IMG/VR virus record: IMGVR_UViG_3300012166_000007
Coordinates: 1-31,819 of that record
Length of the DNA stretch: 31,819 nucleotides
Strand: one strand, 5' to 3'
DNA from: a virus
Lineage: Duplodnaviria > Caudoviricetes
Both the position numbers and the translations under genes were made by a program. Shown here one piece after another: positions 17,132-28,054 of this stretch; the stretch's first letter is position 1; the number at the start of each line of letters is the position of its first letter. The notes under the pieces were generated by a model. That model ran no database searches. It was not told the origin of the DNA and saw only the letters and a program-made list of their open reading frames with translations.

Positions 17132-17205
17132 TGCGCGGATGGACAGGAATCGAACCTGTGCATGGGCCTTCACGGCCCATGTTCTGCCACTAAACTACCA
17201 CCCTC
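17132..17205 (-). tRNA. Atypical tRNA (His-like G-1:C73, non-canonical anticodon loop CGTGAAG)
   Basis: G-AGGGTGG TA GTTT-AGTGGCA-GAAC A TGGGC-CGTGAAG-GCCCA TGC ACAGG-TTCGATT-CCTGT CCATCCG C GCA. Confidence 0.7.
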
Positions 17206-20120: not shown

Positions 20121-20160
20121 AAAGAGACAGGGGCACATCCCAAGGATGTGCCCCATCTTT
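20121..20160. terminator. Bidirectional terminator between convergent genes
   Basis: GGGGCACATCC-CAA-GGATGTGCCCC with T-rich tails on both strands. Confidence 0.75.
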
Positions 20161-20574: not shown

Positions 20575-20951
20575 CAGGCTTCGACCATGCGGTCGAAGTC
20601 ACCGTCATTCAGAGTCTGGATGTCTTCCTTGCCGGTATCCAGGTCTGTCATCAAGGCGATCGCCTTGACCTTGGCGTACATAGGCTCGTCGACCTCATAG
20701 AGGTCCAGAATCTCCCACGTGGCGTTGCGGCCCGCGAACTTGTACTTCTTCCCGAGCCGGAAGAACGTGGCAGGCTTCTCCCACATGGACTCGACGATGG
20801 ACCACACTACTTCGAACCTTTTGCCATTCTTGTCCAGCAGCCACGCCATGTTGTCATGCAGGCCAATAACCTCGCACACGCCACGTGTTGTCTGGTAGAT
20901 GCCGCCCTTTTCGGCAACAACCTTGTCACCAATGCTGATCAGCATGCTCAT
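20574..20951 (-). CDS. Hypothetical protein (two small beta domains)
   Basis: AAGGA RBS; ATGA overlap. Confidence 0.75.
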   Translation of the reverse strand: MSMLISIGDKVVAEKGGIYQTTRGVCEVIGLHDNMAWLLDKNGKRFEVVWSIVESMWEKPATFFRLGKKYKFAGRNATWEILDLYEVDEPMYAKVKAIALMTDLDTGKEDIQTLNDGDFDRMVEA

Positions 20952-21502
20952 TCCTTTTCCCTTTGGTAGTAGCGTTCCAGGTTGGAGTTGCTCTCCGCCT
21001 GAAGGTAACCGGTCCTGCGAGAGCGCATGAGCGCTCCCTTGTCTCCCGTTGCAAGGATGTCGAACGTGTCGGTCCTCTGAATCAGGGAGACCACGTCCCC
21101 GACCTTGCGGTCAGGGTTCTGTCCAGGACTGCCAGGCCGAGGCTTGGACTTGTCCTTGCGTACATCCGGCGACTCTATGATGATGCGCCAGAGACCGGAG
21201 TCGTAAGCCGCGAGAGTGCCGTAACTGGAACTGGCATCGATGAACCATGCCACCTGCCGTCCGCCTTCGACCTCCGGTCCGATCCATCCAACATAGTAGA
21301 TCTTGGATGCCATCGCGGGAGTCTTGAAGGCAAGCCCGACCCTCAAAGGGACGGGTGCAGGGTTCACATCAACGGTCCACATGTCGTAGATGCCATCAAC
21401 GATCGCAGTTGCTACGTCCTTGAGCGACCGCTCCTCGTTGGCAGAGTCGTCGATCAGTGCAGCCACCGCATCAATCTGTGCTGCCCGACTTGGCACAGCC
21501 AT
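20948..21502 (-). CDS. Hypothetical protein
   Basis: GAAAGGAGG RBS before ATG 21502 (MAVPSR...). Confidence 0.8.
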   Translation of the reverse strand: MAVPSRAAQIDAVAALIDDSANEERSLKDVATAIVDGIYDMWTVDVNPAPVPLRVGLAFKTPAMASKIYYVGWIGPEVEGGRQVAWFIDASSSYGTLAAYDSGLWRIIIESPDVRKDKSKPRPGSPGQNPDRKVGDVVSLIQRTDTFDILATGDKGALMRSRRTGYLQAESNSNLERYYQREKE

Positions 21503-21612
21503 GAATCCTCCTTTCATGGACCCAGAGGTCTGCGAGTATCGAGGGGAGAGAGGCACCCGATACTCGCAGACTTCAAGGTCCACGACTCTTGGTCGTGGAA
21601 CCTTGTTACATA

Positions 21613-22086
21613 CTACTCCACTCGGTCGCCAGTCTTGGTGTCGACCCAGTAGAGGCCGCCGAGAGTGTAGTCCTTGACGGCGCGCTGGCCGTTGAGGGCG
21701 CGCTCGTGAGCGTCTGCCCACGTTGCACCCTTGTCCTGGCTGCCCTGGAGGATGTCCAGGTACCGAGCGGCGTCCGAATCGAACGTCAGATCCTGGTCGA
21801 TCTGGAGCGCGCCCAGGAGATCACTGACGCCCTGCTCGTTGAGGCTACCCTGAAGGAACTTGTCCTGCGGGATACCTCCGAGGATCAGGGCGGTACCGAC
21901 GAGGCAGCCAGGGCGGTGGTTGCTCGCCTCGTACTCCTCAAGCTCCTCGTTCCAGGTGCTCGTGTCGTAGTCCACGTACAGGCACACGCCGGGGCCTTCG
22001 GGGGCCTCGTACTTGTAGCCCTCAGGCTTGGACGCGATAGCCTGTTCAACCAGCTCGACAGCCTTGTCAAGCTTCAAGTCAAGCAT
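21613..22086 (-). CDS. Early protein, paralog of 23718-24143
   Basis: GGAGGGAG RBS; KPEGY..CLYVD..PGCLVG..QDKGATW. Confidence 0.8.
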   Translation of the reverse strand: MLDLKLDKAVELVEQAIASKPEGYKYEAPEGPGVCLYVDYDTSTWNEELEEYEASNHRPGCLVGTALILGGIPQDKFLQGSLNEQGVSDLLGALQIDQDLTFDSDAARYLDILQGSQDKGATWADAHERALNGQRAVKDYTLGGLYWVDTKTGDRVE

Positions 22087-22092
22087 GATACT

Positions 22093-22312
22093 CCCTCCAC
22101 TTCCGTGAACCTCACGGAGAGGGATGCACAGAGTGAACAACTGGCGTCCGGGTGACAAGCCCTTAGTACCTTATATCGAACGGCATAGCCGTTCGTGCCC
22201 TTCGGATCGAAGATCCGCATGGCCCAGGTCACTGCCAGGAGCCTACTTATGTTTCGGCTACTCTGTGCATCCTTCACCGAGGACATCCCCGAAGGGATGT
22301 CACACGGATGCA
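22093..22312 (-). ncRNA. Structured cis-regulatory RNA (riboswitch-like)
   Basis: 15-nt closing stem, internal hairpins and an anti-SD; see findings. Confidence 0.55.
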
Positions 22313-22316
22313 GCCG

Positions 22317-22748
22317 TTACGGCTGAGACGTCGGAAGATCCTCCGAGGAACCCCGGAAATCGACGTCAGGCAAGATGGACTGGGGCTTAAACGTCTTCCG
22401 GTAGTGGTAGGCCGATGCCTTGATGGGCTCGCCCTGCTCCACGAAGTACGACACATTGTCGGACAGTCCGAAGAAGTCCTTCACGTACTCGTTCTTGCCG
22501 GTCTTGCAGATCACTTCAAGCTGGCTGTCCTCTGGGTCGACGTCGATCGAGCAGGCGCCAACGATCTCCAGAAGGTACTTGTCCGTGATGCCGTTGAACA
22601 TCACGATGCGACGATTGACCTCGAAGTTGTCGGCAGCCTCGGATACGTTCTCCGACGCCACATCGGCGTCACTCGAACAGGCAGACACGCCGAGCCCCAG
22701 CGTAGCCATCGCGACGGCAGATGCGATGAGCTTGGTGGTGCGCTTCAT
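22317..22748 (-). CDS. Phage lipoprotein
   Basis: Signal peptide with VSAC lipobox; SDADVAS.N.S..ADNFEV.RRIV.FNGIT family motif common in phages. Confidence 0.85.
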   Translation of the reverse strand: MKRTTKLIASAVAMATLGLGVSACSSDADVASENVSEAADNFEVNRRIVMFNGITDKYLLEIVGACSIDVDPEDSQLEVICKTGKNEYVKDFFGLSDNVSYFVEQGEPIKASAYHYRKTFKPQSILPDVDFRGSSEDLPTSQP

Positions 22749-22824
22749 GCTTTACTCTCCCCTTTTCGCTGTGATCCACAGTGGATCAAGCAACGCTCAG
22801 CCTGAAGGCTGAGCATCACTTCAC

Positions 22825-23373
22825 TCACTGGGAGAACAGGTACGTTGTGCCACCCCACGAGCATTGATCGTAATCGCCGATGAGTGCTTCACCATACGCC
22901 TCGAAGTCAAAGTAAGACTCCAGGTCTTCGGAGATGTAGTTGCCGCCTTCCTCCATACGCTCTGCTGCGTACTTGGCGTAGTCCCCATCGAACTCTTCGT
23001 AATAAAGACTTTCCACGGTGCGGAAACCGGTATCGAAGTCGAAATACCTCCAGTCCACGTGCTCGATGTAAGCCAGGACGGCGCCCCCAGCGGCGGGCAG
23101 CTCCCTGGACTGGAGGTAGGAGTACAGCTTGGCCACCTCGTGAATCCACAGCGTGTCGTTCTCGTTCGCACCGATGACAAGCTCTTCGCCGTCATCGTCA
23201 TCGAAGCTGAGGCCGGTCACGCTGCCGAAAGCGATTCCTCGCTCGTCAGCAAACTTGGCCACCTCCACGACGATCAGTTCGAACAGTTCATCGGCGTCGT
23301 CCGCGTGGACCCACAGGTCATCAAGATCGATGCCCTCACTGTCGCCAGGGGTGCGCTGAATCCAGAGTTCCAT
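22825..23373 (-). CDS. ardA: ArdA-like antirestriction protein
   Basis: Highly acidic; C-terminal YAAE..EE......LESYFDFEAYG..L motif. Confidence 0.7.
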   Translation of the reverse strand: MELWIQRTPGDSEGIDLDDLWVHADDADELFELIVVEVAKFADERGIAFGSVTGLSFDDDDGEELVIGANENDTLWIHEVAKLYSYLQSRELPAAGGAVLAYIEHVDWRYFDFDTGFRTVESLYYEEFDGDYAKYAAERMEEGGNYISEDLESYFDFEAYGEALIGDYDQCSWGGTTYLFSQ

Positions 23374-23644: not shown

Positions 23645-23717
23645 TTCTCTCTCCCTTGTTTACTGCGTTCCCCAAGTCGGGGTGAATGCCGCCACCCGGA
23701 GGTGGCGACAAACATCT

Positions 23718-24143
23718 CTACTTGGAGTCGCTCGCGAACACGTCGCCCCAACTCAGGGCGATACGTCGGCTGGCCACGTACCCGACTACGGAGTCGGTGA
23801 TTTTCGCGACGACCCCCCAGGGCACGCCTTGGTCCTGGAGCGTCTGGGCTACACCCATGATGGCCTTCGCCCGGTCCGAGAACTCGAACCTGTCACTGAA
23901 GAACTCCACCAGGGACGCAGCGGTGTCCAGCCTGGGCACATCTTCGATGTCCACGCCGAGCTTCTCGATGAACAGTGAACCGATGATGCAAGACGGCACA
24001 AGGGTGCCGTCCTCAAGAACATCCACGTTCACGCACCCTCCGGGCTGGTCCGGCTCGCATGCGTAGCCGTCAGGCTTGGCGTCAGCCAGCTCAGCCAGCC
24101 AGTCAACGATTTCGTTGCCGTCGACCTTGCGCTTGTCAGTCAT
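23718..24143 (-). CDS. Early protein, paralog of 21613-22086
   Basis: KPDGY..CVNVD..PSCIIG..QDQGVPW; CAAGGGGAGAGA RBS. Confidence 0.8.
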   Translation of the reverse strand: MTDKRKVDGNEIVDWLAELADAKPDGYACEPDQPGGCVNVDVLEDGTLVPSCIIGSLFIEKLGVDIEDVPRLDTAASLVEFFSDRFEFSDRAKAIMGVAQTLQDQGVPWGVVAKITDSVVGYVASRRIALSWGDVFASDSK

Positions 24144-24190
24144 GTCTCTCCCCTTGGGATGCGGTGTGACGCAGAACACACGATACGGAC

Positions 24191-24219
24191 TTGACAACGT
24201 CCGACACGCAGGCTACAAT
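24191..24219 (+). promoter_or_regulatory. Consensus sigma70/HrdB promoter firing antisense to the early operon
   Basis: TTGACA-17 bp-TACAAT. Confidence 0.8.
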
Positions 24220-24225
24220 CGTCTT

Positions 24226-24370
24226 ATAGGTAGTTAAACAAGGTTCAGCGACTGCGACCCCCAGGGAGCAGGTTAGCTGCTGAATGTCGCCACATCTGAA
24301 GTCAGTTTAAGTTCCTGGACATGCTAAACAATGTCAAACAGCCGCCACCCTAAGGGGTGGCTGTTTTGTT
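24226..24370 (+). ncRNA. Candidate ~145-nt small RNA
   Basis: Bounded by the promoter and a terminator (AAACAGCCGCC/GGTGGCTGTTT plus TGTT); no credible ORF. Confidence 0.55.
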
Positions 24371-24597
24371 GTCTAGACATCGGCAACTCAATCGCCGTGC
24401 GGCTAAGGGACCAGTTACGCTTTCGGCCTAGGGGCCTACAGCTTCACTGACCGGAGAAGGAATCCCCAGCATCCTTCACTGGTTCTTCTGCCTCCGGTCC
24501 TCGTTTCCCCTGGTTTAACTATGTTTAACAGTGATCCACTGGATCAGGAAGCACAGCTGCCTCAAGGCAGCTGCACAACCTCACTCAGTAGAGCGTT

Positions 24598-25086
24598 TTA
24601 CAGCTCAGAGAACTTCTTCACTCCGTTACCCACGTAACCTTCAGTGGTGTGGACCTTCAGGGGACCGAAGCTCCCTGCATAATCCGCCAGAGTGGAGTAG
24701 CCGAACTCTTGGGCAGCGCCCATGTCGCTGCGAGGCGTAAGCCTCTCGATGTGACCGTCCTCGATGTAGACGAAGAGCATCGTCTTGTCGGTGGACTTGT
24801 CCTTACCGACGAGAATGTCGCCCTTCTGGAAGGCTTCACCCTCCGTCCACATGCTCTTGTAGGACTCTTTGATCGACTCGCTCGACAGGAGACCGAAGTC
24901 TCCCCTGTACGCATTCCACGTACCGTCGTCGTCGGTCTCTCCGCCCTGGGCGACGAAGCGGTAGCCGTCGATCTCGGAGATGTAGATCTCCTTGAGCAGC
25001 TTGTAGCCGTACGCCCGTCGGAGTGTTCCCTGATAGACGACAGTGTCGCCCGTCTTGAACACGCCATTGTGGGGCTTGACAGCCAT
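24598..25086 (-). CDS. Hypothetical early protein
   Basis: ACAAGGGAGAGAG RBS before ATG 25086. Confidence 0.8.
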   Translation of the reverse strand: MAVKPHNGVFKTGDTVVYQGTLRRAYGYKLLKEIYISEIDGYRFVAQGGETDDDGTWNAYRGDFGLLSSESIKESYKSMWTEGEAFQKGDILVGKDKSTDKTMLFVYIEDGHIERLTPRSDMGAAQEFGYSTLADYAGSFGPLKVHTTEGYVGNGVKKFSEL

Positions 25087-25170
25087 AACTCTCTCCCTTG
25101 TTCCGGTTTTCCCTGATGTGAACAGGGTGAATGTGGACATCCAGAAGATGTCCACAAACGTCACGTCACA

Positions 25171-25848
25171 TCACTTCACGAGAGTACTGGAGAACGGCGC
25201 CCCGTCGGGGAGCGTCATCTCCTTCATTCCAGTCCGGTCCACCAGGACCAGACGAATGACACTTGCGCCGTCCTCAAGGGGGCGCAAGGATGTGTCAGTC
25301 ACGGCGTAGAACTTCTCACTATTGGCGTTGATGAGGAACATCCCCGCCTTGACGGAGAGTTCCCCCACCTTGACGCTGTACGAGCCACTGGCCCCGAAGT
25401 TCTCGCGGGTGAGTACGGCGGGCTGGCTGTGACCGTACGCAGTGAACTGACCGCTGCTCACAGTTCCAGCCAGGACTACGTAGAAGCTCACGGGTGAGCC
25501 GTCCACGTCGGCGACGTGCGTCTGAAGTACCTTGACGCCGTCGCCGTACTTGTTCCTGTAGACGTCGCCCTTTTCGACCAGGGTGTTGTCCGGTCCGAGA
25601 GCTTCCTTCCATGCCTCAGTCAGACTGGACATACCGCCCATGGTGTTGAAGCCCAGGCGGTAGGCGTCGTCCTCTTCCAGCGCAAGCTCGCTCAGGCCGT
25701 CCTCGTAGTCGCCGAACACCTGGCCCAGCACGCATACAGAGCACGAGCCGAGGTTCAGACTGTCGAGGTCGACAAGGTCACGCCAGCCAGGCTGCTCAGT
25801 ATCGAGCAGCCTGATGCCAGCCTGAACCTTACTGCTGAAGTCTGTCAT
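25171..25848 (-). CDS. Hypothetical early protein (CSVCVLGQ N-domain plus beta domains)
   Basis: ACAAGGGGAGAGA RBS. Confidence 0.8.
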   Translation of the reverse strand: MTDFSSKVQAGIRLLDTEQPGWRDLVDLDSLNLGSCSVCVLGQVFGDYEDGLSELALEEDDAYRLGFNTMGGMSSLTEAWKEALGPDNTLVEKGDVYRNKYGDGVKVLQTHVADVDGSPVSFYVVLAGTVSSGQFTAYGHSQPAVLTRENFGASGSYSVKVGELSVKAGMFLINANSEKFYAVTDTSLRPLEDGASVIRLVLVDRTGMKEMTLPDGAPFSSTLVK

Positions 25849-25932
25849 CTTCTCTCCCCTTGTGGGTTTGTGTCATGCGATCCATGGCACATCAATGCCC
25901 ACATCAGAGATGTGAGCAAAGAAGATTGTGGA

Positions 25933-26019
25933 TCAGCCCTTCAGATATTTGACCGCGAAGTACACGAACGCCACCGCACCCGCAAGGGGCGGCAGGAGTA
26001 TCACTGTCTCCGCAATCAT
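25933..26019 (-). CDS. 28-aa membrane peptide (MIAETVILLPPLAGAVAFVYFAVKYLKG)
   Basis: GGAG RBS; ATGA overlap. Confidence 0.55.
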   Translation of the reverse strand: MIAETVILLPPLAGAVAFVYFAVKYLKG

Positions 26020-26390
26020 GACTTCTCCAGCATCGCGTCAACGGCAGCCTTCTGGGTGGTGAAATCCTTGACGGCTTCACCGGAGGTGGAACAGAACGAG
26101 TAGCGGACCACTTTACCATCCGATACGGCGTACTTGTTCACCAGCCCGACCAGCTTGCGACTGCCCTTGACCCGCACCTCGTACGTCTTTGGGGTCAGCC
26201 TGACAACGGCCACAGAAGCCCTTGAGAGCCCCTTGGGAGACGCTTCGGCAAGCTTCCTTGCCTTGGACCTGTTCCGTCCGTTACGGGACGTCTCAGGCAC
26301 CCTGTTGCCAGCACCGAACCCCACGAACCGGGAGCCCTTGAGGGGCTCACCGGCACTCATGAAGGTTTCATCGAATGCAAGGTGACTCAT
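26016..26390 (-). CDS. Basic hypothetical early protein
   Basis: ACAAGGGAGAGAG RBS. Confidence 0.75.
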   Translation of the reverse strand: MSHLAFDETFMSAGEPLKGSRFVGFGAGNRVPETSRNGRNRSKARKLAEASPKGLSRASVAVVRLTPKTYEVRVKGSRKLVGLVNKYAVSDGKVVRYSFCSTSGEAVKDFTTQKAAVDAMLEKS

Positions 26391-26470
26391 AGTCTCTCTC
26401 CCTTGTGCAGTCCGGCAGTGATGCCGTCAATGCCCACATCCAGAGGATGCGGACAAAGAGTGGTCACTGA

Positions 26471-26803: not shown

Positions 26804-26880
26804 GTTCTCTCTCCCTTGTGTCGGCAGTGATGCCGCTGCAACGCTCACCCCGAAAGGTGAGCGCTCCATCTGGTCACTGT

Positions 26881-27634: not shown

Positions 27635-27657
27635 CATTATTCAGTTCTCAAGGAACG
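27635..27657 (-). promoter_or_regulatory. rrn-leader boxA-like element, copy 2
   Basis: CGTTCCTTGAGAACTGAATAATG. Confidence 0.6.
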
Positions 27658-27932: not shown

Positions 27933-27954
27933 CAATGTGAAGTTCTCAAGGACC
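27933..27954 (-). promoter_or_regulatory. rrn-leader boxA-like element, copy 1
   Basis: GGTCCTTGAGAACTTCACATTG. Confidence 0.55.
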
Positions 27955-28054
27955 TGCGCCAGTCTCCACGTTCCCCGTTCTGGCGGTCCGTCTTGCTGAC
28001 AACCAGAACACTACGGATTGCAGAAGTGATGGACCGGAGCAAAGGGCGGGATCA

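Follow-up and report, generated by a model that had tools for sequence, protein, structure and literature searches.

A conserved three-way-junction RNA on a candidate RNase III processing stem in the early genes of Streptomyces podoviruses

The window, by which we mean the whole 31,819-nucleotide stretch of DNA analyzed here, is a phage record related to the Streptomyces podoviruses of cluster BF (Beephvirinae), and its minus strand carries a three-way-junction RNA at positions 22115-22279. This is a real phage RNA family, apparently undescribed, seated on a known kind of element. The reading we prefer, and hold tentatively, is that a conserved three-way junction stands on a stem likely processed by host RNase III, and that the head would be released as a likely protein-binding small RNA. 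The cutting of the stem, the enzyme, the cut positions, the choice between one strand and both, and the role of the head are what we infer.

Twenty-nine phage records match the window, eleven of which were examined in sequence, and the gap holding the RNA was matched by BLAST in all twenty-nine. The cultured phages WRightOn, FlowerPower, Manuel, Abafar, and JXY1 carry the RNA, so it can be put to the test at once. The gap is flanked by a PF25682 gene and a phrog_572 gene and belongs to a minus-strand block of small genes that also encodes an ArdA-like anti-restriction gene. We term this block 'early' by analogy with T7 and from its position behind promoter-like sequences at the genome end. A consensus scan of the minus strand around the RNA found no internal promoter. 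The features referred to below are as follows.

22317-22748, minus strand: upstream gene, 143 aa, PF25682 (Phage_VG64) and phrog_478 by family searches
22277-22307, minus strand: P0, a 5' hairpin, GACAUCCC/GGGAUGUC, with a UUCG loop; its upstream CCG is at 22307-22305
22260-22279, minus strand: 5' strand of P1, namely CGG, U (of U·U), GA, A (of A·C, 22273), followed by 12-13 bp that reach the junction
22275-22261 with 22133-22119, minus strand: long-stem strands of P1, GAAGGAUGCACAGAG with CUCUGUGCAUCCCUC
22240-22259, minus strand: P2, which covaries, with the 12-nt loop GAAACAUAAGUA (22255-22244)
22141-22238, minus strand: P3 arm, with CUGGC/GCCAG, an inner junction, a GGG/CCC helix with a CUUGUCA loop, and lineage-specific inserted hairpins
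22217-22203 and 22195-22177, minus strand: the lineage-specific hairpins inserted in P3
22135-22140, minus strand: junction strand J3/1, UUGUUC, with UUC here in 36 of the 39 marker-picked matches described below
22115-22134, minus strand: 3' strand of P1, ending C-C-UC-U-CCG and holding a local anti-Shine-Dalgarno (anti-SD) sequence
22102-22118, minus strand: P4, a small hairpin, UCCGUGA/UCACGGA, whose UCCG is also part of the P1 foot
22091-22098, minus strand: Shine-Dalgarno (SD) sequence of the downstream gene, from the sequence
21613-22086, minus strand: downstream gene, 157 aa, phrog_572 (a family without assigned function)
21514-21585, minus strand: a further hairpin that lacks a head but repeats the P1 foot (U21575·U21524, 2 bp, A·C, G-C), the second covariance-model match (27.3 bits, E = 4e-5)
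20948-21502, minus strand: phrog_12091 gene, a constant landmark downstream of the RNA

Pattern scans of viral, metagenome, and genome collections gave seventy-four distinct cores that passed a loose pairing filter. Eight were dropped as chance, all of them at or below 12.3 bits with a covariance model that scored the kept cores at 49-95, leaving sixty-six distinct homologous cores, all phage-like among the matches listed. The model was built from fifty-six of these. Pattern loci that failed the pairing filter (6 of 45 viral, 55 of 120 metagenome) gave no model match above 16 bits among the matches listed, and the forty-seven pattern matches in bacterial and archaeal genomes included no homolog by the model. 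A 2.8-Mb Streptomyces record, scanned without a positive control, gave no match to the RNA. Scanning viral contigs for the head only returned twenty-three loci, twenty-two on contigs already in the set and one a chance match.

Both P1 and P2 covary among the relatives. Twelve of seventeen pairs change on both sides (9 of 14 in P1 and 3 of 3 in P2), 97.9 per cent of cells are paired, and the covariation score is 0.511 vs 0.138 for shuffled alignments. On a tree built without P1 there are 90 pair changes vs 83 and 84 single-side changes, and the partner columns of P1 change together (index 0.05 vs 0.64 for 72 non-partner combinations).

Core length is 165 nt in the window and 79-176 nt across the sixty-six cores. 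At the junction, the head has two short linkers and one pyrimidine linker, and its third arm is dispensable; P3 varies, and only a 4-bp hairpin is left of it in one core (L311). By the family-C junction rule, two short linkers and one of 6-7 nt would presumably lay P2 beside P1. Within P3, the GGG/CCC helix has a pairing probability of 0.26 in the window, and in relatives its stem changes in pairs by eye. A kink-turn search of P3 with a loose detector (tandem G·A, 3-4-nt bulge) scored 21 of 80 arms, some of them spurious, vs 9.2 in shuffles (maximum 17). By eye, neither kissing between the P2 and P3 loops nor GAA/UUC pairing covaries in relatives, and no conserved pseudoknot is seen, many cores having lost the CUUG loop with which L2 could kiss. 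We take the GAA and AGUA of the P2 loop to fit the bulged-G (loop E, sarcin-ricin) motif. The likeness lies in a GAA opposite an AGUA closing a hairpin, with GAA on the 5' side, an orientation that is presumably opposite to that of the sarcin-ricin loop itself. A similar loop is present in the 23S rRNA of both E. coli and Streptomyces, in what we take to be helix 11; the RNA differs from the 23S loop in its shorter, variable loop tip. Mimicry of rRNA was not seen at the level of the domain, the covariance model having no match in E. coli or Streptomyces 23S (best 10.4 bits).

We then turned to sixty-two loci fetched by a metallophosphoesterase marker, which were therefore not selected on the RNA. 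The covariance model matches thirty-nine of them, and forty-four hold phrog_12091. Thirty-two matches combine foot and head, four have the foot only (head absent in 4/39), and three (L433, L434, L440) the head only (foot absent in 3/39). As 5 of the 43 loci with enough sequence upstream of phrog_12091 also lack a match (one is weak, at 24 bits), neither module is obligatory, and head and foot are independent of each other. The foot pattern of P1 is a mismatch, 2 bp, and then A·C. Foot position 3 is mismatched in all thirty-six foot-bearing matches (U·U in thirty-two, C·U in two, A·C in two) and position 6 is A·C in 36/36. Among the sixty-six cores, U stands opposite U and C opposite A in sixty-five, though the search had left the 3' partner free. 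The head of the loci picked without an RNA pattern keeps GAA…AGUA around a variable loop tip. At the place of the 21514-21585 hairpin, the same foot is found in all four GenBank relatives. On the early-gene strand, the window and each relative have exactly two U·U feet, one of them without a head; the counts on the opposite strand are 0, 0, 1, 3, and 0. L335 (402-566), nearly a twin of the window, has pairs in place of both P1 mismatches and so a perfect inverted repeat, which may be either a real repair or an assembly artefact.

The genomic place of the RNA is fixed, shortly before the phrog_12091 gene, and the neighbors differ on both sides. An RNA match lies 20-1175 nt upstream of phrog_12091 in 38 of the 44 loci with this gene. 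Adjoining proteins fall to 30-50 per cent identity and get swapped, and the RNA is kept. The gene directly 3' of the RNA falls into at least six protein families (23, 12, 10, 4, and single cases) by a rough ORF caller that missed some first genes. The phrog_12091 protein is present in exactly the twenty-nine phage records that carry the RNA and is a possible partner for it. Searches of Pfam, PDB, and Atlas gave no lead to its function; its WKVGD-type motifs look SH3/KOW-like to us.

In the long helix of P1, two pairs separate the two mismatches, a spacing that agrees with a staggered cut leaving a 2-nt 3' overhang. In the reading we prefer, host RNase III would cut P1 in the early transcript as it does in T7, between 22274 and 22273 on the 5' side (CGGU-NN^AG) and between 22119 and 22118 on the 3' side (CC-NN^UCCG), the two cuts leaving just such an overhang. 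The upstream message would then end in P0 as a 3' terminal stem and the downstream message would start with P4 as a 5' terminal stem, so that both would be left hairpin-protected. The CCG of P0 (22307-22305) is able to capture the CGG of the P1 foot, and the foot strands are doubly used, since they can also refold, on the upstream side as a 3' hairpin and on the downstream side as a 5' hairpin. CGG is fully paired in the minimum free energy (MFE) fold of the predicted upstream product in 61 of the 65 cores with enough flank, and the UCCG…CGG hairpin starts at the predicted 3' cut in 61 of 66. The RNA and its flanks preserve four CCG/CGG segments able to pair with one another, and hairpins at the ends of the cut products would explain why CCG and CGG each occur twice. 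A double cut would free an RNA of 69-166 nt carrying the head, which would act as a protein-binding small RNA; the predicted product in the window, of 155 nt, folds well alone (z = -4.76). In the window, the 3' cut would in addition separate the anti-SD from the downstream message, leaving its ribosome-binding site (RBS) free. The predicted 3' cut lies 23-44 nt before the start codon (median 32; 64 of 66 measurable).

A 12-bp stem is enough for one RNase III cut (parts of PMC8708148). Beside the predicted 3' cut, the helix extends for 14-15 positions above, where about 11-12 bp are required, and only 3-4 bp below, so a single 3' cut without release of the head is equally plausible. Several observations speak against this reading. 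The mismatches adjoin both predicted cuts, whereas positions around proven E. coli and B. subtilis cuts are mostly paired (parts of PMC6212723 and PMC11780869); the Streptomyces stalks and hairpin compared below do not repeat the foot exactly; L335 pairs both mismatches; and either module can be absent. In S. coelicolor, a 4/4 internal loop is cut by RNase III on either side (parts of PMC10126417). The pair pattern of the P1 foot fits that cut but not the mostly paired sites of E. coli and B. subtilis.

The layout is of the T7 type, with the RNA intercistronic and its kind of hairpin repeated in the early block shortly before RBSs. Among the hairpins listed, most early intergenic gaps hold an irregular hairpin of 25-30 bp before a strong RBS, with A·C, A·G, G·G, and U·U as mismatches. 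The early gaps of T7 have hairpins in the same positions, and RNase III cutting there matures and protects the messages (parts of PMC8708148). Like the T7 sites R0.3-R1.3, the hairpins here are irregular, intergenic, and placed shortly before early-gene RBSs, in a podovirus and in a block with an anti-restriction gene. The T7 sites differ in being simple hairpins with an asymmetric loop and demonstrated cutting, whereas the RNA here has a conserved three-way junction, symmetric single mismatches, and refolding flanks, and its cutting is predicted by comparison. The Streptomyces rpsO-pnp hairpin and pre-rRNA stalks are also long helices with closely spaced single mismatches, but the identity and spacing of the mismatches are different and there is no junction head. 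In Streptomyces sp. BHT-5-2, the pre-rRNA stalks have a G·G mismatch rather than the U·U-2 bp-A·C foot, and the rpsO-pnp hairpin has A·G and U·U one pair apart, not two. The RNase III site mapped at rpsO-pnp in PMC4681348 is only a candidate (parts of that paper). Sequence and covariance model of the phage RNA have no match in the scRNA of B. subtilis, a host housekeeping RNA. This small structured RNA is reportedly freed from its precursor by RNase III cuts on either side.

The early-block leaders of the window contain two boxA-like copies of TTGAGAACT, at 27643-27657 and 27941-27955 (minus strand), downstream of TTGAC-type promoter-like sequences. This sequence occurs twice in the window, once or twice in the terminal regions of four relatives (L386-L389), and not at all on the opposite strand. 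At 27657 the copy agrees with the Streptomyces rRNA leader in 15 of 15 positions. Likeness to the B. subtilis boxA, which binds NusB (parts of PMC13753749), suggests that the early leaders may use host rRNA-type antitermination. We found no consistent long-range partner for the boxA-like sequence. Going further, it is conceivable but doubtful that the early operon of these phages, with its boxA-like leader and processing stems, imitates an rRNA operon of the host, and that host RNase III frees from it a stable small RNA of a new class that works in trans as the phage takes over, or that the same head is a phage sensor gating the cut. If so, the freed bulged-G-loop RNA could be, for example, a decoy for a host defence or a ribosomal protein. 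Conserved structured RNAs in lytic actinophages are nearly unstudied. Were our reading true, it would add a new phage small-RNA family, and Streptomyces RNase III would gain a well-sampled cleavage motif; together with the boxA-like leader, this would be a case of a phage borrowing the rRNA transcription route of its host.

The main rival is that the head is a sensor in cis, with a metabolite, ion, or protein docking the GAA…AGUA loop on P1 and so gating the cut or shifting the CCG/CGG exchange. Such a riboswitch-like element, acting through processing and tuning the downstream genes, is possible, and we rate it as unlikely. Head and foot are joined in 32 of the 39 marker-picked matches, the junction geometry would presumably bring P2 alongside P1, the four CCG/CGG segments are kept, and in the window partial anti-SD pairing competes with the foot. 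However, the downstream genes vary, heads without a foot exist in L433, L434, and L440, and the anti-SD is absent in 35 of the 66 cores. Somewhat less probable again is an uncut element that binds a protein or acts in transcription, such as a mid-operon antiterminator with a boxA-like leader or a site for phrog_12091. The boxA-like copies in the early leaders of all five genomes and the shared presence of the RNA and phrog_12091 in the same twenty-nine phage records would suit it. The RNA sits mid-block, about 2 kb before the next terminator-like hairpin (20130-20154), L403 has an RNA match without a phrog_12091 match, five loci have the gene without a clear RNA match, and the refolding flanks are left without explanation. 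A self-cleaving ribozyme of a new class, separating the cistrons, would account for a fixed core with a variable peripheral arm and unrelated neighbors. We consider it improbable, as no Rfam ribozyme matches, the letters that are most fixed lie in two modules that occur apart, and, with the CUUG loop often missing, no conserved pseudoknot is seen.

The preliminary description had drawn a translational riboswitch, in which an upstream UGCAUCC opens P1 and frees an anti-SD. The stretches it quoted all lie where it placed them on the minus strand (UGCAUCC at 22312-22306, UCCCUCU at 22124-22118, the RBS at 22098-22092, CCGUGA/UCACGG at 22117-22103), and the region is structured, folding far better than shuffles (z = -4.68, 0/200). 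P1, AGCC/GGCU, and CUGGC/GCCAG are in the MFE fold, but the GUGAC/GUCAC helix is weak (P about 0.23) and mutually exclusive with GGG/CCC; the two inner hairpins are present in the window but inside the variable insertion of P3. Two balanced, exclusive folds are not what we found: the OFF fold with both proposed helices lies at -101.9 vs -109.8 kcal/mol, about 8 higher, and the upstream UGCAUCC pairs with P ≤ 0.0002 in the window, where part of the anti-SD pairs with the SD without the upstream helix (P up to 0.55). Relatives do not keep the expression platform. Only 2 of the 66 cores, the window and its near twin L335, have a perfect upstream partner for P1 positions 7-13, and an anti-SD of at least five pairs is possible in thirty-one (seven pairs in the window). 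That the domain belongs to no known aptamer class agrees with Rfam searches of the window and eight homolog loci, in which no family matched the RNA; only a tRNA elsewhere reached gathering level, and only chance matches appeared at E-value level. Translational riboswitches likewise have a multibranch domain directly before an RBS; the RNA here differs in having no Rfam family, no conserved alternative fold, and no common downstream function. With at least six downstream families, and phrog_572 without an assigned function in the window, no ligand logic is visible. The switch as first drawn is therefore unlikely, and we give it very little credence, although both helices can be drawn in the window genome.

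The literature searched gave no description of the RNA, which may be among the 8,495 IMG/VR candidate RNAs of PMC10690425. PMC11536984, PMC9753666, and PMC13097060 describe these phages, and the RNA is absent from the parts examined.

Several other structured elements were observed in these genomes. An 11-bp hairpin at 20130-20154, terminator-like on both strands, lies where the early block meets convergent genes. The window has a single tRNA-Ser(TGA) at 17133-17205 (minus strand), and tRNAs are annotated at the same place in Manuel (Pro/Ser) and WRightOn (Pro). Long irregular intergenic hairpins are found on the minus strand at 22776-22833, 23670-23727, 24533-24594, 25090-25180, 26400-26470, and 26810-26880, each followed by an RBS of AAGGG(G)AGAG type, and two of these hairpins have a U-A/G·G/A-U triplet that also occurs in the host rRNA stalks. 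No long gene was called on the minus strand in the 467-nt gap at 24141-24608, which contains several nested hairpins and may hold another RNA. Manuel, FlowerPower, and WRightOn (L386, L387, and L388) share a further structured leader, conserved and about 80 nt long, which directly follows the last boxA-like copy and was not seen by eye in the window or in Immanuel3. Finally, a short hydrophobic ORF precedes a variable hairpin closed by the conserved frame GATCCACAATCT…GTGCCATGGATC; this frame occurs at 25846-26026 in the window and also in L386 (15741-15925), L387 (16418-16666), L388 (15339-15496), and L389 (16657-16935).
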